The translations under genes were made by a program, and so were the position numbers. From a virus (taxonomy: Duplodnaviria; Heunggongvirae; Uroviricota; Caudoviricetes), in IMG/VR virus record IMGVR_UViG_2563366842_000009: a stretch of 29,651 bases of DNA, one strand, 5' to 3'. The notes beneath the pieces are model-generated. The model ran no database searches and was not told the DNA's origin. It saw only the letters and a list, made by a program, of their open reading frames with translations. The stretch's first letter is position 1. Each line of letters opens with the position of its first letter. Below are positions 5,089-15,305 of the stretch, in pieces.

Positions 5089-5366
5089 GAAAAACACATC
5101 AACTAAAAATTCGGCCTGAGTTTTTTCAGGCTGTCATCAATGGAACGAAAAAAGCCGAGTTTCGTCTTGCTGACCGTGCTTTTGCTGTAGGGGATTTACT
5201 TTGCTTAAACGAGTATGGCCACTGCGAGTATGACCCGCAAAAGGTCGGGTTTACAGGGGCATTTGTCTACGTGCTGGTGACTCATGTAACTGACCTTAGC
5301 GAGTGGGCTCCTGGCTATGTGATGCTAAGCATACAGCGTAGGCAAATGGGGGAACTATGCGGGTAA
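5085..5366 (+). CDS. ASCH/DUF3850-like small protein
   Basis: Start at ATG 5085 (AAGGCGG RBS); the N-terminus (HQLKIRPEFFQAVINGTKKAEFRL.DR.F.VGD) resembles the ASCH-like DUF3850 fold as recalled. Confidence 0.55.
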   Translation: MRKTHQLKIRPEFFQAVINGTKKAEFRLADRAFAVGDLLCLNEYGHCEYDPQKVGFTGAFVYVLVTHVTDLSEWAPGYVMLSIQRRQMGELCG

Positions 5367-7591
5367 GCGTTAATTATGCTTACCCGTGGAACACTCCACG
5401 GTCGGCAATAGCCAGCCCATATCTTACCTATAACCAACAGCATCGCCGCGACCGTATGTTCGCGGCTTTGCTGCATGCGAGAAAGGTGCTTTCTCTGCAG
5501 CCTGAGTGCGTGCGATTTGACGTTTATCGCACCGCTGAAGTGCTGGAACAAAATCAGGGCAGTCAACGAGCCAATGCTTTTTTAATCAACTTCTGCAAAA
5601 AGGCATTGCCGCGTCTTGAACTGGTCGCAAAAAAATATGAGTGTGCAGGCATTAGCAGCGATGTATCAGGCGCTGTTTTCGGTGGTCATTTCGATACGAA
5701 ATATATGCAGTATCTGGCATCACGTATGGTCAATATGGTCGCCAGATACAACCGCCTCCCGGATATGTCGCGTGCCGACATTGACCTGCTTTCTGCTGAT
5801 ATCGCTAATTTTATTCGTGCTGAACTGGCAGAACATGATGACGCTGATTCACATTTCGGCGAGTTGGCGACATTACATGGCTGGTACATGCGCGCCGGAT
5901 TAATTGCGCTGCAATTTGGTGTTACTCCTCCTCATTGGGCGGGACTGACAACAAAATACTTTGACCAGGACAAAGCGGCGCCAGCAATCATGCGCATGTT
6001 TAATGAGGTTTGGTGGCGTGGCCGTCTGCGACGCATTGCTGCGTCATGGCGCGAACATCTGCAAATTGCAGTCGGTAATGTCAGCAAAAAACGACACGCC
6101 TACGCGAGTAAAAATTGTGTGACCGACTGGCGCGAGCAGAAGCGCCGCACGCGTGAATTTCTCAAAGGGCTGGATCTCGAAGACGAAGACGGCAACCGCA
6201 TCAGCCTGATTGAAAAATATGATGGCTCGGTCGCCAACCCTGCGATACGTCGCTGCGAGCTGATGACCCGCATCCGTGGGTTTGAAAATATCTGTAATGA
6301 ACTCGGTTATGTCGGGGAGTTTTACACCCTGACCGCGCCGTCTAAATATCACGCCACAACTAAAGCAGGCTACCGTAACAGCAAATGGAACGGAGCCAGC
6401 CCGTCGGACACGCAGAGTTATCTCACTGGCCTTTGGGCGCGCATACGCGCCAAGCTACACCGTGAAGAAATCCGCATTTTCGGCATCCGTGTTGCCGAGC
6501 CTCATCACGACGGGACGCCTCACTGGCACATGCTTATGTTTATGCTGCCGGAAGACGTTGAGCGTGTGCGCCTCATTATTCGCGATTATGCGTGGGAGGA
6601 AGACCACCACGAACTGAGAAGCGATAAAGCCAAAAAGGCACGTTTTCATGCCGAAGCCATTGACCCGGAAAAGGGCAGCGCTACCGGCTATGTCGCTAAA
6701 TACATTTCCAAAAACATCGACGGATATGCTCTTGATGGTGAAACCGATGACGAAAGCGGTGAGCTGCTGAAAGAGACAGCTCCCGCCGTATCAGCATGGG
6801 CGGCGCGCTGGCACATCCGTCAGTTCCAGTTTATCGGCGGTGCGCCGGTGACGGTCTACCGTGAATTACGTCGTCTCGCTGATACCGAGACCGCGCACGG
6901 TCTGAGCGTTGAGTTTGCTGCCGTCCATGATGCCGCTGACGCCGGTGACTGGGCTGGTTACGTTAATTCGCAGGGTGGTCCGTTTGTCCGTCGCGATGAT
7001 TTACAGGTGCGCACGCTGTATGAGCCGCGCCCCGAGTTTAACCAGTATGGTGAGGAAACCGTCTGCATTCGTGGCGTCTACGACTCTGCTGTCGGTGCTG
7101 GCACCCCGATTTTAACCCGGTTAACGCAGTGGAAAATTGTGCCGAAGCGTGCCGTTGATTTGGCCGTTGACGTTAAGGGCGCTCCTGCGCCCTCTCGGAG
7201 TTCTGTCAATAACTGTACGGGAAGCGAAAGCGATCCACCGGAACTCGATTTATCAAAACCCCTGAGTCGACGTGAAAGACGAGAGCTGACCAACCGACTC
7301 AGGAAGCAAAAGCCAGCAATACGGCGAAAATTCATCCACGGAACGGATGAGCAAAACGCAGCTATAGCTAAAACTATCGACGAGATACAACTGACAACCG
7401 GCATTACAATCGGCCGTGGCGAAGCCCTGCACCTGATGGCCGGTGGTAAAAGTTGTTTTGATGGCAAATGGCTACGCGGAACGGCCAAAGGAGAAATATT
7501 CTTAGCAGCACCATCGCATCAGGCTAAGGCTAGAAAAATCCTTTATCGTGTTGCTGCGATGGCTGAGGCATCAAAACCAATGCCTGAGTAA
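5357..7591 (+). CDS. A: Rolling-circle replication initiator endonuclease (P2 gpA family)
   Basis: 744 aa. HUH-type metal-binding motif (TPHWHMLMF) and catalytic tyrosine motif (GYVAKYISKNIDG) characteristic of P2 A / phiX174 A-type replicases; size and position match P2 gpA. Confidence 0.9.
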   Translation: MRVSVNYAYPWNTPRSAIASPYLTYNQQHRRDRMFAALLHARKVLSLQPECVRFDVYRTAEVLEQNQGSQRANAFLINFCKKALPRLELVAKKYECAGISSDVSGAVFGGHFDTKYMQYLASRMVNMVARYNRLPDMSRADIDLLSADIANFIRAELAEHDDADSHFGELATLHGWYMRAGLIALQFGVTPPHWAGLTTKYFDQDKAAPAIMRMFNEVWWRGRLRRIAASWREHLQIAVGNVSKKRHAYASKNCVTDWREQKRRTREFLKGLDLEDEDGNRISLIEKYDGSVANPAIRRCELMTRIRGFENICNELGYVGEFYTLTAPSKYHATTKAGYRNSKWNGASPSDTQSYLTGLWARIRAKLHREEIRIFGIRVAEPHHDGTPHWHMLMFMLPEDVERVRLIIRDYAWEEDHHELRSDKAKKARFHAEAIDPEKGSATGYVAKYISKNIDGYALDGETDDESGELLKETAPAVSAWAARWHIRQFQFIGGAPVTVYRELRRLADTETAHGLSVEFAAVHDAADAGDWAGYVNSQGGPFVRRDDLQVRTLYEPRPEFNQYGEETVCIRGVYDSAVGAGTPILTRLTQWKIVPKRAVDLAVDVKGAPAPSRSSVNNCTGSESDPPELDLSKPLSRRERRELTNRLRKQKPAIRRKFIHGTDEQNAAIAKTIDEIQLTTGITIGRGEALHLMAGGKSCFDGKWLRGTAKGEIFLAAPSHQAKARKILYRVAAMAEASKPMPE

Positions 7592-7890: not shown

Positions 7891-8124
7891 ATGAGAATCA
7901 ATATCACGTTGGATAAAGAGCAAAAAATTAGTCAGGCAACGTTGGATGCACTAGAGGCTGAGCTGTACCGCAATCTTCAACCTATTTACCCAAAGACTGC
8001 TATCCGCATTCGCAAGGGCTCCGCAAATGGTGTTGAGCTAAGCGGTTTGAAACTGGACGAAGATAAAAAACGAGTAATGGAAATCATGCAGCAAGTATGG
8101 GAAGACGATAGCTGGCTGCATTAA
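7891..8124 (+). CDS. DinI-family protein (Tum C-terminal-like module)
   Basis: 77 aa aligning along its length with E. coli DinI as recalled (MRI.[IV]T..K......A.DAL..EL.R......P......R.......LS........K.R..EI.Q..WE....W); low-GC region. Confidence 0.8.
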   Translation: MRINITLDKEQKISQATLDALEAELYRNLQPIYPKTAIRIRKGSANGVELSGLKLDEDKKRVMEIMQQVWEDDSWLH

Positions 8125-8130
8125 TAAACG

Positions 8131-8165
8131 CCGCCAGCGCTGAAACTCGCTTTCAGTGCTGGCGG
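8131..8165. terminator. Hairpin between convergent genes (15-bp stem with 1 mismatch, loop ctcgc); candidate bidirectional terminator
   Basis: ccgccagcgctgaaa / tttcagtgctggcgg inverted repeat located between the DinI-like stop (8124) and the stop of the minus-strand 312-aa gene (8198). Confidence 0.5.
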
Positions 8166-8197: not shown

Positions 8198-9136
8198 TTA
8201 ATTTAGTTTTAATGAATGGTACTCAACCGAGTCGACCTTAGATTTGATATATGTACAATCATTTACAGAGAGTAATGCTGCTAGTAAGCGACATACCAGA
8301 GCCTGCATTTCTCGTAATATATCATCACCATATTGACCGCCATTAACACTGGAGAAACCAAGCGGTTGACCATAGAAAATAGCCTCATGAAAATTATCAT
8401 TGCGGATGGTTGTAATATTTTTTTTGCCTGTTACCCATGAAGGACGTGGTATGCCATAGGTTTCGCACAGCCACTTTAACCGCCTGGAATGATTTAACGT
8501 TTTTTCAGGGCACTTGTTTTTTTCTGCCCACGCTAAAGCAAAGCAACCATCCAATGCCATATAAAGATAATGGAACTTTTCAAATGAAAGGTATTGTGGG
8601 TTGTGAGATAAAAATAGTGCGTGCACCACTGCCGCTATTTTTATTGGTGATTTCTCTTTTTTTTGCTCGCTAGATATGTAATTGAGAGCCAATTCTATGA
8701 TTGCTTTTTCAGAGCATCTGCCGAGAGTAAAGTCTGTTAACTTAGCAGGCTTGATGGGGGTTGCATCTAAAAAACCAGCTTCGGTGGTTGTTAATCTCAT
8801 CCCCCTGAAAAAAGACAGGCACCACACAACAAAGTTGAGAGTTTCTAGCGAGGATGTATTTTTTAATTTTAGTATGTGCGTTTTTGGTAATCCGAATACT
8901 CGGCAACTATAAGGCATTGTGGATATGCCGCCATTAAAGTTATATATCTCTTGGTTTCCGGGGTATATCCAGCCATTAACAACATTTTTGTCATTGTTAA
9001 CGCGCTCTACTTTCTCAGCGAGGCCGGGTAAAGTAAGTAAAGAAAAATTTTCAGTCTCAATGTTAACTTCTACTGGATAGTATCCAAACTCAGATCCAAT
9101 CTCATCGGGCTGCTGTTCGGTAACTTCACCTTGCAT
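8198..9136 (-). CDS. Orphan 312-aa protein in the A-cos accessory hotspot; candidate anti-phage defence or abortive-infection protein, function unknown
   Basis: Good RBS (GGAG 6 nt before ATG at 9136); low GC relative to the phage backbone; no signal peptide or obvious transmembrane segment; occupies the old/tin position of P2. Contains an R-N-x-x-x-H motif (RNDNFH, 8387..8404), which is only weak evidence for a HEPN-like RNase. Confidence 0.7.
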   Translation of the reverse strand: MQGEVTEQQPDEIGSEFGYYPVEVNIETENFSLLTLPGLAEKVERVNNDKNVVNGWIYPGNQEIYNFNGGISTMPYSCRVFGLPKTHILKLKNTSSLETLNFVVWCLSFFRGMRLTTTEAGFLDATPIKPAKLTDFTLGRCSEKAIIELALNYISSEQKKEKSPIKIAAVVHALFLSHNPQYLSFEKFHYLYMALDGCFALAWAEKNKCPEKTLNHSRRLKWLCETYGIPRPSWVTGKKNITTIRNDNFHEAIFYGQPLGFSSVNGGQYGDDILREMQALVCRLLAALLSVNDCTYIKSKVDSVEYHSLKLN

Positions 9137-9373
9137 ATCTTTCTCCGTTCAAAAATAGGCTCGATAGTTATGGAGAGGCTATCATGTTTGGAAATAGCCA
9201 ATGTTCGTGATTTTTGTAAATTTAAGGTGATTTATCAATAAATAAGCTGTGCATGCAACAGGTGCATGGTTTTGCATGCGTCAGGCTTGCCCGTTCTGGT
9301 AGTGCGCCGCCAGAGCTGGCACGGATCCAGAGTGGTCATGCAACTGCATTAAAACCGACCCATAAAGCGGGCA

Positions 9374-9392
9374 GGCGTGGCGGGGAAAGCAT
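9374..9392. other. Candidate cos site (19-nt cohesive-end sequence GGCGTGGCGGGGAAAGCAT)
   Basis: Matches the 186 cohesive-end sequence as I recall it, differing at 2 of 19 positions from the recalled P2 cos; lies about 180 bp downstream of the portal gene Q, as expected for P2-family phages. Confidence 0.6.
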
Positions 9393-9533
9393 TGCGCGCC
9401 AGAGGTGGTGCGTAATAATAAAAATTATCGTCTGAGCGCGCCATGATGGCGCGTTTATGGTCGCTTTCGATTCGTTGGTGGTTGGGTGTGGTAGTGCGCG
9501 TGCGGCGCGTCTGAGGCGTGATGGTGGCGGGGT

Positions 9534-9569: not shown

Positions 9570-10616
9570 TTATTCCGGGTTATCGAGGGTGTACTCTTTG
9601 AACCTGATGACCTCCATGCCGAGCCAGTCGTTTACCTCCCTGAACCTGTCCTGCAGCGGCGACAGCTCGTTACGCACAAATACCTTTGCCACCTTCTCAA
9701 CGTCACCGAGCGAGCCGATATTCTCGGGCTTACCGCCCATTAGCTGGAAAGGTACGCGGTGCGCATCCATCAGGTCGGCGGCACTGGCTTTCTTGATATT
9801 GAAAAAGTCATCCTTTGTGGCGACCTCGCTCAGTGGCACGATTTTTATGCCGTCCGGTTTTCCACCGGGGGCGTAGAAAAACAGGTTCTTAAAGTTGCCG
9901 AGCCCTTTCGAGTTGCGCATCGCCTCGCGTAGTGATTCGACGTCGGTCGCACTCTGCGCCGGGTCGGTTACATACATGATGTAACCCGCGTGCGCGCCGT
10001 TCTGGTAATACTTGCGGCGGAACAGCGTTGCGGATTCATTCAGCCAGGCAGAATTAAGCGCGCTGAGATATTCCGGCAGGCCGTAAATCTCCTGATTAAT
10101 GTCAGGCTCCAGCAGGTGAAACACGGTATCAGGCGCGAACTCATGCGGCTGAGTGAAGTTTTCCACAAACCAGAAAATTGAATCATCAACCCCACGGCGG
10201 GTGTATTTTGCTGGTGATGCCAGCAACTTGATTAACTGGCCGGTGACGCTGTGGCGCTGCTCAAGAAAAGCGTTGCCGAAGACCAGATAGTCGAGCGCAA
10301 AACGGCTGAAATCCTGACGGGACAGCAGCGGGTGCGGAATGTAGGTGCTCGCGAGCACGTTGCGTTTAACGTAAATCGGTGAGCTGTGATGCACGGCAGA
10401 GCGCAGGCTCTTTGCCAGCCCGGAAAAGCTGACCGGCGGCTCGTACCATTTGCCGTTACTGATGCACTCGACATAATCCAGAATGTCGCGCTTATCGAGC
10501 ACCGGAACTGGCTCACCGAAGGTGAACGCTTCCATTTTTTGCGGTGCGCTGGCTTTCAGTTGCTGTGGTGCGCGTGTTTTCTGCGCGGCGGCTTTGCGGG
10601 ATTTTTGCTTACCCAT
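9570..10616 (-). CDS. Q: Portal protein (P2 gpQ family)
   Basis: 348 aa; extensive recalled similarity to P2 Q (MEAFTFGEPVPVLD.RDILDYVECISNG.WYEPPVSF.GLAKSLR.AVHHSSPIYVKRN.LAST...). Start overlaps the stop of P. Confidence 0.95.
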   Translation of the reverse strand: MGKQKSRKAAAQKTRAPQQLKASAPQKMEAFTFGEPVPVLDKRDILDYVECISNGKWYEPPVSFSGLAKSLRSAVHHSSPIYVKRNVLASTYIPHPLLSRQDFSRFALDYLVFGNAFLEQRHSVTGQLIKLLASPAKYTRRGVDDSIFWFVENFTQPHEFAPDTVFHLLEPDINQEIYGLPEYLSALNSAWLNESATLFRRKYYQNGAHAGYIMYVTDPAQSATDVESLREAMRNSKGLGNFKNLFFYAPGGKPDGIKIVPLSEVATKDDFFNIKKASAADLMDAHRVPFQLMGGKPENIGSLGDVEKVAKVFVRNELSPLQDRFREVNDWLGMEVIRFKEYTLDNPE

Positions 10617-12385
10617 TAGTTGAACTCCAGAATAGATTTAGGCTGCATGCCGCTACCGGCAGAAAGCGGTTCGTTTAACAGGGCGTGCATGGTCGCCCAT
10701 GCGATATCGGCGTGACTGGCTTCCTCGGTGCGGCTGGCCTCGTAGGTGGCACTGCGCCCGCTGCTGGTCATGGTTTTGCGAATAGACATAAACGACTGCG
10801 TGACGTCGGTTGCCCCGGCGTCGTACTCCAGACAGCCACGGCGAATGGTGTCTTTCGCCTTGAGTACCATCGCGGTTTTCATCTCAGGTGTGTAACGGAT
10901 GCCGCGTGCTGCCGGGTAGAATGAGCGCACCAACTGGAACACGCCGAGGCCGAGGCCGGTTGCGTCAATGCCGATGTATTCGACGTTGTATTTCTCGGTC
11001 AGCTTGCGGATGCCCTCTGCCTGCGCGGCAAAGTCCATGCCCTTCCACTGGTGGCGCTCCAGCATGCGGAACTTGCCACCCGAGACCACCGGCGGCGCGA
11101 GCACGACGCACCCGGCACTGTCGCCAGTGTGCGACGGGTCGTAGCCAATCCAGACCGGGCGAGAGCCGAAAGGATGGTCGGCGAACGGGGCAAAATCCTC
11201 CCATTCTTCCATCACATCGACCATGCAGCGCTGCAGCTCCTCGAACGGGAATACCGATGCCTTATCGTCGACAAACTCGCACATAAACAGGTTTTTAAAA
11301 TCATCATCACTGTTTTCGCGTTTGAGCTGGTCGAGGTCGAACAGGGTGCAGCCCCCGGCAAGGGCGTCCTCAATGGTGACAATCTGCCGCCACTGGCCAT
11401 CGTCGCAGAGCTGACCACCGGCGAGCGCGCGGTGACTGATGTCGATTTCGATGCGGTCAGCGGCACTGGCGCGCCCCTTGTTGAACAGCTCACCCGACCA
11501 GAAGGGGTAAGCCCCGTGCGCCAGTGTTGAGGGGGTCGAAAAGTAGGTTGAGCGCAGGTGCTTCTGCGATGCCATGCCCGAGGCGACTTTGCGCAGTTTC
11601 TGAAAGTTCGGGATCCAGAATATTTCATCGACATACAGGTCGCCGTTATGGCTCTGCGCGGTGTTGGAATTGGTACCGAGAAAAATCAGTTTTGCGCCGT
11701 TGTTGCCGATGACAATTGGGTCGCCGGTCAGGTCGACGTCGACCAGTCGCGCAAACTGGATGATGTATTCGCGGAACACGTAAGCCTGCGTTTTACTGGC
11801 TGACAGAAATATCTGGTTATGGCCGGTTTTGAGCGCGCGCAGCAGCGCCTCGCGGGAGAAATAGAACGTCGCGCCAATCTGGCGTGATTTGAGAATGTCG
11901 CGAATACGGTGTTCCAGCCCTGCGCGGTACCACTGCAACTGATACTCGAAAGACTGGTCGAAAAATAATTCCTCCAGTTTCTCGATAGCCTCGTCGCTGA
12001 AAAAATTCTTTTTCGGCTTTTTGCGCTCCCCTTTGTTGCGGTTGGCGACGTTGGGGTTAAGGTCGGCCTCGTTGCCGGTCTGGCTGTAGCGGTTGACGCG
12101 CGCCAGCCGCTCAATCTGCCGCCCGAGCAGGTCAATCTCTTTGAAATCGCCGCCTGTCTTTTGCGGCTTGGCGATGAGCTGAATCAGCCTGGCCTCAAGG
12201 CTGCTTTCAACGCGGGAAATCGGCGCGATGCCGTCCCAGCCGTCGCGCTGCTTCCAGCTCTGCACGGTCGGGCGCTTGACCTGCAGCATTTCGGCAATCT
12301 GTGGCACGGAAAAGCCCTGCCAGTAAAGCAGCGATGCCTGTCGTCGCGGGTCATGCAACAAGGTTGTATCGGTGGAAATGGTCAT
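10616..12385 (-). CDS. P: Terminase large (ATPase) subunit (P2 gpP family)
   Basis: 589 aa, size and sequence consistent with P2 P; divergent from O as in P2. Confidence 0.9.
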   Translation of the reverse strand: MTISTDTTLLHDPRRQASLLYWQGFSVPQIAEMLQVKRPTVQSWKQRDGWDGIAPISRVESSLEARLIQLIAKPQKTGGDFKEIDLLGRQIERLARVNRYSQTGNEADLNPNVANRNKGERKKPKKNFFSDEAIEKLEELFFDQSFEYQLQWYRAGLEHRIRDILKSRQIGATFYFSREALLRALKTGHNQIFLSASKTQAYVFREYIIQFARLVDVDLTGDPIVIGNNGAKLIFLGTNSNTAQSHNGDLYVDEIFWIPNFQKLRKVASGMASQKHLRSTYFSTPSTLAHGAYPFWSGELFNKGRASAADRIEIDISHRALAGGQLCDDGQWRQIVTIEDALAGGCTLFDLDQLKRENSDDDFKNLFMCEFVDDKASVFPFEELQRCMVDVMEEWEDFAPFADHPFGSRPVWIGYDPSHTGDSAGCVVLAPPVVSGGKFRMLERHQWKGMDFAAQAEGIRKLTEKYNVEYIGIDATGLGLGVFQLVRSFYPAARGIRYTPEMKTAMVLKAKDTIRRGCLEYDAGATDVTQSFMSIRKTMTSSGRSATYEASRTEEASHADIAWATMHALLNEPLSAGSGMQPKSILEFN

Positions 12386-14552: not shown

Positions 14553-15305
14553 ATGACGAGTCCCGCACAGCGTCACATGATGCGGGTCTCGGCCTCTCAA
14601 GCCGCGCAGCGGGAGCAAGCCCCGCTGCGCCATGCAACCGCCTATGAGCAGATGCTGGTTAAGCTGGCCGATGACCGTCGCACGTTAAAAAACATCCGTT
14701 CAAACGAACGTAAAGCCGAGAAAAAGCGCGAGCTGCTGCCGTTCTATGCGCCGTGGGTCGCCGGTGTGCTGGCTGATGGCCGTGGTGCGCAGGATGACAT
14801 TGTCATGACCGTCATGCTGTGGCGTCTCGATGCCGGTGATATCGCTGGCGCGCTGGAAATTGCCCCCTACGCGCTGAAATACGGCCTCACTTCTGACCAT
14901 CGCCGCACCACACCTTACATGCTGGTTGAGGAAGTGGCACTTGCCTCGCAGCGTCTGCGCGATGCCGGTGAGTCTGTCGACCTTTCCTGGCTGCAGACCA
15001 CTATCGACCTGACCGACGGCGCAGACGTTCCCGATATGGTGCGCGCCCGTCTGCATAAGGTGACAGGCCTGACCCTGCGTGATGCCGGTATGAATGCAGA
15101 GGCGCTGGCGCAGTTTCAGCGCGCGATGCAGCTCGACCGCAATGCCGGTGTGCGCAAGGAGATTGAGCGACTGGAACGGGCATTGAAGCCAAAGCCAGAG
15201 GCCGCACCCCGTAAAACGACTAAACCGCGCACGCGCAAACCTGCCACCAGACCGGCAGCAAAGCGCGGGCGTCCACCAAAGGCGGCAAAACCGCCGGTTA
15301 ACTGA
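14553..15305 (+). CDS. M: Terminase small / endonuclease subunit (P2 gpM family)
   Basis: 250 aa with a basic Pro/Lys/Arg-rich C-terminal tail; position after N as in P2. Confidence 0.85.
   Translation: MTSPAQRHMMRVSASQAAQREQAPLRHATAYEQMLVKLADDRRTLKNIRSNERKAEKKRELLPFYAPWVAGVLADGRGAQDDIVMTVMLWRLDAGDIAGALEIAPYALKYGLTSDHRRTTPYMLVEEVALASQRLRDAGESVDLSWLQTTIDLTDGADVPDMVRARLHKVTGLTLRDAGMNAEALAQFQRAMQLDRNAGVRKEIERLERALKPKPEAAPRKTTKPRTRKPATRPAAKRGRPPKAAKPPVN

Follow-up and report, generated by a model that had tools for sequence, protein, structure and literature searches.

The window analysed in our study is a stretch of DNA of 29,651 nucleotides, and its gene content was found to be that of a 186/P2-like prophage. 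The replication gene A (rep) was present at 5357–7591 on the plus strand, followed by a DinI-like gene at 7891–8124 on the same strand (PF06183, 7.4e-24) and by a 312-aa, AT-rich hotspot cargo ORF at 8198–9136 on the minus strand. The portal gene (Q) was present at 9570–10616 (minus strand) and the large terminase gene, of the gpP type, at 10616–12385 (minus strand), with matches to Pfam Terminase_6N, Terminase_6C, Terminase_5 and HTH_23. The scaffold, capsid, small terminase and head-completion genes come after the large terminase gene in window order; the small terminase gene, of the gpM type, occupied 14553–15305 on the plus strand (PF05944 at 3.7e-40; phrog_74, 'terminase small subunit'). 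The cos site was flanked by the replication/hotspot region on one side and by the portal (Q) and large terminase (P) genes on the other, as is the cos of the P2 family.

The product of the cargo ORF showed 77–78% identity to ORF313 of P2-EC67 and to a protein of vB_EcoM-613R3, and it matched phrog_5937 (function unknown); searches of Pfam, PADLOC and NCBIfam returned no match for it. The cos-proximal hotspot of P2-like phages is a reservoir of anti-phage systems (PMC9122126), and the 312-aa ORF is a candidate for an uncharacterised defence or exclusion gene. On the opposite side of the cargo gene from cos, the stretch 7891–8165 contained the DinI-like gene and, 3' of it, a GC-rich hairpin at about 8130–8165. 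In phage 186, the SOS-controlled tum operon is found at the place matching 7891–8165, and this stretch may be the left-hand edge of the cargo hotspot.

The 19-nt cohesive end GGCGTGGCGGGGAAAGCAT, which is the cos nick region, was found at 9374–9392 on the plus strand. Window position 9374 aligned with position 1 of the records of phages 186 (U32222) and PSP3 (AY135486), in both of which cos is annotated. Since 9374–9392 aligned with the annotated cohesive end of these two phages, the site that the initial annotation had named as a candidate cos is a real cos. The cohesive end fits the GC-rich 5' type of the P2 family, GGCG(A/T)GGCGGGGAAAGCA(C/T), and its first 18 nucleotides were the match to the pattern used in the cohesive-end scan. 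The cos shared by P2, P4 and 186 is described as a 55-bp core that includes the 19-nt cohesive ends (PMC5694545, PMC3931495, PMC9594776). In the window, the core of this published length and position is placed at 9338–9392 on the plus strand (−36 to +19), with bounds inferred from the conservation profile: the columns carried more than 1.4 bits each, ranging over 1.4–1.9 bits in 58 lineage representatives among the matches listed, and the window fits the consensus. The outer edge of the core was formed by the nick-proximal boxes ATGCA-AC-TGCAT at 9338–9349 (plus strand), an inverted pair at −36 and −29, of which CATGCAAC recurred at the first of the distal boxes described below in a repeat search. 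On the portal-gene side of the nick, a conserved flank beginning with TGCGCGCC was found at 9393–9409 on the plus strand (+19 to +35; mean 1.35 bits per column).

Position and conservation of the TGCATG boxes

Three TGCATG motifs were read on the plus strand on the replication-gene side of the cohesive end, at the coordinates reported in the initial annotation. Box 1 (TGCATGCAA, 9250–9258), the outermost conserved element of the cos block, has its TGCAT start at −124 from the nick. Box 2 (gGTGCATGg, with TGCATG at 9263–9268) starts at −111, and box 3 (TTGCATGC, 9272–9279), the best conserved of the three, starts at −101. The measured distance was 114 bp to the ATG of the 312-aa gene and 95 bp to the cohesive end, in agreement with the earlier estimates of about 115 and about 95 bp. 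The cluster spans −124 to −95 and the core starts at −36, so that the cluster lies outside the published core, by 59–86 bp.

The repeat search found an inverted pair, GCATGCAA at 9251–9258 and TTGCATGC at 9272–9279, of 8 nucleotides with 100% complementarity and 13 nucleotides apart. It also found direct repeats within the cluster, namely TGCATGCAACAGG and TGCATGCGTCAGG, 23 nucleotides apart, and two copies of GTGCATG, 13 nucleotides apart. The middle box was imperfect in relatives, being TGCATT in 186 and TGAATG in P2-EC67, and P2 contained three direct TGCAT boxes without inverted arms. The inverted repeat emphasised in the initial annotation is thus present as a pair, but it is secondary, because the conserved unit is a direct repeat of three TGCAT boxes. 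Over the whole window, TGCATG was not over-represented (22 observed versus 30 expected). Three plus-strand copies within 30 nucleotides were obtained in none of 1000 dinucleotide-preserving shuffles; a count of four on both strands was reached in 28 of 1000, because TGCATGCA scores twice.

The conservation of the boxes was examined in viral contigs scanned with the cohesive-end core, which gave at least 120 loci, of which 105 unique loci were used. A set of lineage representatives (n = 58) was formed from loci whose 55-bp spacer (−94 to −40) was less than 60% identical to that of any other; this filter was meant to lessen the effect of relatedness, and a later set contained 60. Among the matches listed, box 1 was present as TGCAT starting at −124, −121 or −120 in 72 of the 105 unique loci (46 at −124 and 26 at −121 or −120), followed by box 2 at −111 or −110 in 78 and box 3 at −101 or −100 in 85. 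In the same 105 loci among the matches listed, the core contained TGCAT at −29 in 101 and ATGCA at −36 in 65. At least two boxes were found in 93 of the 105 unique loci among the matches listed and none in only 1, and one locus contained GCGT-like boxes only. The density of TGCAT in the interval −130 to −95 was 6.8 per 100 bp per locus, compared with 0.05–0.16 in the flanks, among the matches listed, and TGCAT was the top 5-mer of the distal interval, 55-fold over the flanks, in the 60 representatives among them.

The spacings were conserved together with the boxes. Boxes 2 and 3 were 10 bp apart in 47 of 56 lineage representatives among the matches listed, and the distance between boxes 1 and 2 was either 9–10 bp or 13 bp in these representatives. 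GCAT of box 3 fell at −100±1 in 51 of 57 lineage representatives among the matches listed, and the distance from box 3 to the box at −29 was 72±1 bp in 52 of 54 P2-type representatives among the matches listed. In the 58 representatives among the matches listed, the information peaked on the GCAT letters of the boxes, the core and its left flank carried more than 1.3 bits per column, the spacer from −94 to −40 had a mean of 0.21 bits per column, and the sequence beyond −131, outside box 1, had 0.11. A scan of viral contigs with the two-box pattern GTGCATN4TTGCATGC gave 121 matches, in 73 of which an exact or variant P2-type core followed at the same distance of 112 bp; the others fell in unrelated coding sequence or in another repeat family. 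Taken alone, the two-box pattern thus favours cos but is not diagnostic of it.

The boxes proved to be conserved when the cos flanks of 186-like phages were compared. In the alignment, the sequence TGCATGCAA-CA.GTG.AT..TT.TGCATGCG was invariant in all four of the window, vB_EcoM-613R3, P2-EC67 and the right end of 186. The phages vB_EcoM-613R3 and P2-EC67 share the ORF313-type cargo, and 186 contains orf97 and the mapped terminator t95b instead. The likeness to 186 was found to start right at the cluster, and many records of 186-like phages in the phage collection matched from window position 9245 or 9250 on. In 186 and in most E. coli prophages, the homologous sequence starts 0–5 bp before box 1; 248 complete E. 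coli genomes matched 9137–9400, with a typical start at 9245, which is 5 bp before box 1.

The boxes were also found beside other genes. P2 contained them at −123, −111 and −101 from the nick with old/tin as the neighbour, and the satellite P4 at −124, −111 and −101 with psu as the neighbour. The P4 sequence between the boxes and the core was unrelated to that of P2, and according to the literature P4 has only cos in common with P2. The Ralstonia phage phiRSA1, which has different cohesive ends, kept TGCAT at −129, −110, −100 and −29. Among the matches listed, 18 psu-positive loci of P4-like satellites contained all three boxes at the same offsets; portal and terminase genes were looked for in these 18 loci and none were detected, and the loci comprised two Psu lineages.

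The initial annotation had offered two roles for the cluster, of which one was an operator, or upstream activating element, where a regulator bound to the TGCATG repeats would control the promoter of the 312-aa gene. A promoter-like site for this gene was found on the minus strand at 9238–9210 (−35 TTGATA at 9238–9233, −10 AAAAAT at 9215–9210; 9/12 in a consensus scan), and the cluster lies about 47–76 bp upstream of the transcription start predicted from it, which favours an operator. The annotated old-tin mRNA starts of P2 are 33424/33426, and the −35 hexamer TTGAAT inferred from them would overlap box 1 by 2 nucleotides; terminase or other proteins bound to the boxes could thus affect cargo transcription incidentally, as a side effect. 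However, the boxes were kept beside a co-directional gene and a terminator in 186, beside psu in P4 and beside unrelated flanks, and the information fell to the above 0.11 bits just outside box 1 among the matches listed. Only 17 of the 248 matching E. coli genomes had the cargo-side sequence in common, whereas most shared the boxes, and the position of the boxes is locked to the nick and not to any promoter. An operator acting on the 312-aa gene is accordingly very improbable, and it was set aside as the primary role, the boxes being kept beside unrelated genes and not co-inherited with the cargo. The predicted promoter ends 11 nucleotides before box 1 and was conserved only in the phages with ORF313-type cargo; by this distribution the putative site is a part of the cargo module and not of cos.

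A tandem direct repeat of 20 nucleotides, GTGATTTTTGTAAATTTAAG and GTGATTTATCAATAAATAAG, with 70% identity, was observed at 9207–9246 over the predicted cargo promoter. It is a better candidate for a cargo operator than the TGCATG cluster, if any operator exists. A sigma-54 promoter (TGGCACG-N4-TTGCW) was considered for the resemblance of GGTGCATGGTTTTGCA and rejected, the spacing being one base too long; a search of 9240–9290 for a sigma-54 promoter gave no match at three or fewer mismatches.

The cluster could instead form a stem-loop that halts transcription entering cos, as a hairpin terminator or insulator. A scan reported a terminator-like site at 9252–9268 followed by GTTTTG, a 42-nucleotide segment folded at −15 kcal/mol (z = −3.5), and the mean z across lineages was −1.9, compared with −0.6 in the spacer control. 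This folding potential exists because the box GCATGC is partly palindromic. Values of z below −2 were obtained in only 42% of lineages, the P2 boxes are purely direct and lack a complementary arm, the conserved letters are those of boxes in one orientation and not compensatory pairs, and 186 has its separate mapped terminator t95b upstream. We regard a transcription-stopping hairpin as scarcely credible on this evidence. As an intrinsic terminator, the site was a weak match (a 6-bp stem with three GC pairs, then GTTTTG) whose structure is not conserved, and it was rejected. The Rfam covariance models gave two chance-level matches far below the gathering scores, none of them over the cluster.

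Passive conservation was considered as well, in which the boxes have no function of their own and are merely kept beside cos or provide no more than an anchor of homology through which cargo is exchanged. Homology in the hotspot does break off at box 1. However, the 55-bp stretch that separates the boxes from the core had drifted to background while the boxes, their spacings and their distance to the nick were kept, and an independent clade showed the same architecture with a different box sequence. Such passive retention has the lowest probability of all the explanations that we considered, and a very low one in absolute terms. The other role named in the initial annotation, a terminase recognition element, is by comparison strongly supported by the sequence evidence, namely the fixed offsets to the nick, the unrelated neighbours, the presence in P4-like satellites and the covariation between clades.

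Clade covariation and the spacer

The Pseudomonas phage phiCTX (NC_003278, 35200–35580) was found to contain YGCAG at the places of the TGCAT boxes. With the phiCTX cohesive-end core as the scan pattern, 88 usable loci were obtained, with 38 lineage representatives. In this phiCTX type, YGCAGG boxes were present at −110 and −100, with a spacing of 10 bp, and near −37 and −28, and the distance from box 3 to the box of the −28/−29 type was 71–72 bp where both were scorable. In the P2 type, GCAT was found in the distal set of 59 of 60 representatives and in the nick-proximal set of 59 of 60, and GCAG in 0 and 4 of 60, respectively, among the matches listed. In the phiCTX type, GCAG was found in the distal set of 34 and in the nick-proximal set of 33 of the 38 representatives, and GCAT in 0 and 2 of them, respectively. 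The distal and the core boxes thus change together, as expected if a single protein reads both sets. The GenBank record of phiCTX itself has 'R4, R5, R6 repeats' annotated across cos.

The candidate reader proteins also differed between the two clades. The predicted recognition helix of the gpP helix-turn-helix was RPTVQSWKQRD in the P2 type versus EKTVHSWKARD in the phiCTX type, and gpM showed about 42% identity between the P2 and phiCTX types, a correlation that extends over two clades only. Covariation of the proteins does not tell gpM and the gpP helix-turn-helix apart, because both differ between the clades. The gpP-type helix-turn-helix is N-terminal, at residues 12–69 (PF06056/HTH_23), and it weakly resembles the helix-turn-helix of the small-terminase model NF040601, below the cut-off of that model. 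A sequence search of the PDB gave no relative of gpM or gpP.

The spacer between the distal boxes and the core (9280–9337) was free in sequence and fixed in length. It contained the GC palindrome GCCAGAGCTGGC at 9309–9320, centred at −59.5. Of the P2-type lineages 15%, and of the phiCTX-type lineages 24%, had a palindrome with arms of at least 4 bp at that centre, compared with 0–2% in the background; a recurrent palindrome near −59.5 is a weak, exploratory observation from the sequences. The A/T content of the spacer was periodic at 10.5–11 bp (permutation 125/5000 in the P2 type and 5/5000 in the phiCTX type), which hints, again weakly and in an exploratory manner, at an intrinsic bend. The sequences CGCCAGAGCTGG (9308–9319) and CGCCAGAGGTGG (9397–9408) form a direct repeat that flanks the cohesive end, 89 bp apart.

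Another kind of reader was considered, a host nucleoid or architectural protein for which the boxes would be a binding array and which would bend the cos DNA, in place of terminase contact. IHF bends the DNA in lambda cosB. The boxes here are phased at about 10 bp, the A/T content of the spacer is periodic, and the replacement of GCAT by GCAG goes along with different host groups (enterics on one side, the phiCTX-type clade on the other), all of which is consistent with a host protein. On the other hand, copies of the same motif at −29/−36, within the nicking core, change in step with the distal boxes, the Ralstonia phage phiRSA1 uses TGCAT as the enteric phages do, and the IHF consensus WATCAANNNNTTR was found in 0 of 60 spacers of P2-type representatives among the matches listed. 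To our knowledge, no E. coli nucleoid protein has a TGCAT site. We consider a host-protein array unlikely, though less so than an operator or a hairpin.

Proposed terminase recognition and known cos sites

The cluster is real and very probably functional, and on the sequence comparisons it is to be assigned to cos and not to the cargo gene. Our favoured explanation, held with good confidence, is a distal subsite of the cos packaging signal for recognition by terminase, similar to lambda cosB. The array consists of three TGCAT boxes in the same orientation, about one helical turn apart and 95–124 bp from the nick on the replication-gene side. Terminase is proposed to bind these distal boxes together with the matching ATGCA/TGCAT boxes at −36/−29, through its gpM small subunit, through the helix-turn-helix at the N terminus of its gpP large subunit or through both. 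By bending or wrapping of the 72-bp spacer, the nuclease would be positioned on the 19-nt cohesive-end region. The P4-type satellites would copy both sets of boxes and so be packaged by the enzyme of the helper. If the array is needed in cis, it would therefore mark both where the indispensable part of cos ends and where, on the cos side, the cargo hotspot begins. The cargo modules, with a putative promoter of their own, abut box 1. The array may act in the initiation of packaging, like cosB, or in its termination, like cosQ.

A more specific form of this terminase reading is that the cos of the P2 family is bipartite, with distal (T/Y)GCA(T/G) boxes and the −36/−29 pair read by the same protein, possibly the gpP helix-turn-helix in place of the small subunit, and with a bent 72-bp spacer that is looped. 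We put it forward as a tentative proposal, which is more probably wrong than right. If it is true, the sequence of the boxes would be a specificity code for which satellites a helper packages, recoded from GCAT to GCAG, and the functional P2/P4 cos would comprise about 145 bp instead of the textbook 55 bp.

In lambda, cosB contains the R3-I1-R2-R1 sites next to cosN and is bound by gpNu1, the small terminase subunit; it is needed in cis for recognition, apart from the nicking site. Feiss and colleagues (1983) and Shinder and Gold (1988) are among the references of PMC9611059. The array resembles lambda cosB in that short elements are repeated, separate from the nicking site and at a set distance to it. 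The motif is 16 bp in lambda, whereas it is shorter here (5–7 bp), in direct orientation with a spacing of about 10 bp and with a copy inside the nicking core, and the spacers between the boxes and the nick contained the IHF consensus in none of the 60 cases counted above among the matches listed. The lambda cosB is on the Nu1/A side, whereas the array is separated from the head genes by the nick. In this last respect it resembles cosQ, a single short element close to cosN and upstream of it, which acts in termination: both are on the side of the nick that becomes the mature chromosome end with the late-replicated, non-head genes. Unlike cosQ, the array is phased and about 100 bp off, and it is not a single element near cosN.

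In HK97, the small terminase is reported to read a defined short cos site in a sequence-specific manner, as the DNA emerges from the tunnel of the small-terminase ring (PMC11331095). The likeness to HK97 is a defined short site in the cos region, here a candidate for reading by terminase; the difference is that the P2 family contains two co-varying sets of boxes, 72 bp apart. The distance between the two sets suggests looping or wrapping.

Judged by sequence, the distal array is probably a terminase recognition array beside the cos nick, which is a known kind of element. The window carries the cos of P2, 186 and P4, and each of these has orthologues of its boxes at the same offsets, so the array is unsurprising in principle. 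The boxes of the window differ from the P2/186/P4 cos of the searchable literature in lying outside its 55-bp core; that literature on P2/P4 cos mentions only this core and contains no description of the distal boxes, and the bipartite architecture of co-varying boxes is not described in it. A 2026 survey of 5945 P2-like genomes did not treat cos. The papers cited above for the 55-bp core credit it to Ziermann and Calendar (1990). The work of these two authors reportedly found that transduction needs more than this core, on the order of 125 bp. If so, the need for a distal region was known before, and the present comparison adds which boxes the region contains, how they are phased, that satellites have them and that they co-vary.

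In a 2022 study, transduction of a P2/P4 cosmid was about 2000-fold better with longer cos flanks than with a shorter signal, and the authors concluded that the flanks matter (PMC9594776). This result supports a distal subsite indirectly, and it speaks to the length of the flanks rather than to the boxes themselves. For the P2/P4 cosmids built on the '55-bp cos' for antimicrobial delivery, the boxes provide a concrete, testable definition of a minimal efficient signal. The searchable literature contains no structural or biochemical account of DNA recognition by P2-type terminase, and the boxes with their GCAT/GCAG recoding are targets for binding and specificity-swap work and a candidate code for helper–satellite compatibility. 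In practice, box 1 (window position 9250) bounds the P2 defence-gene hotspot on its cos side, which is useful for the annotation of cargo genes.

Similar boxes were observed in a few other places. At eight loci, IMG/VR contigs of an unrelated group contained a dense array of GGATGCRAACGCATCATGTGCATCCATTTGCATGCAAACGCATCA, with GCAT boxes about 10–11 bp apart and no P2-type cos within 160 bp; this array may serve packaging or replication in a different group of phages. In the Haemophilus phage HP1 (NC_001697, 31950–32355), CACGGAAA boxes were present at about −110, −46 and −16 from the right end of the record, and they may represent the same principle with a different motif, in one genome and with the record end assumed to be the cos end. 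Two further IMG/VR loci contained TGCAT boxes both distally and beside a divergent and apparently different cohesive-end core (...CATGCATGGAAAGTGCATGA...GGCGGGGAGAGGG / GGCGGGGGACC), and the box motif therefore reaches cos variants outside the core pattern.
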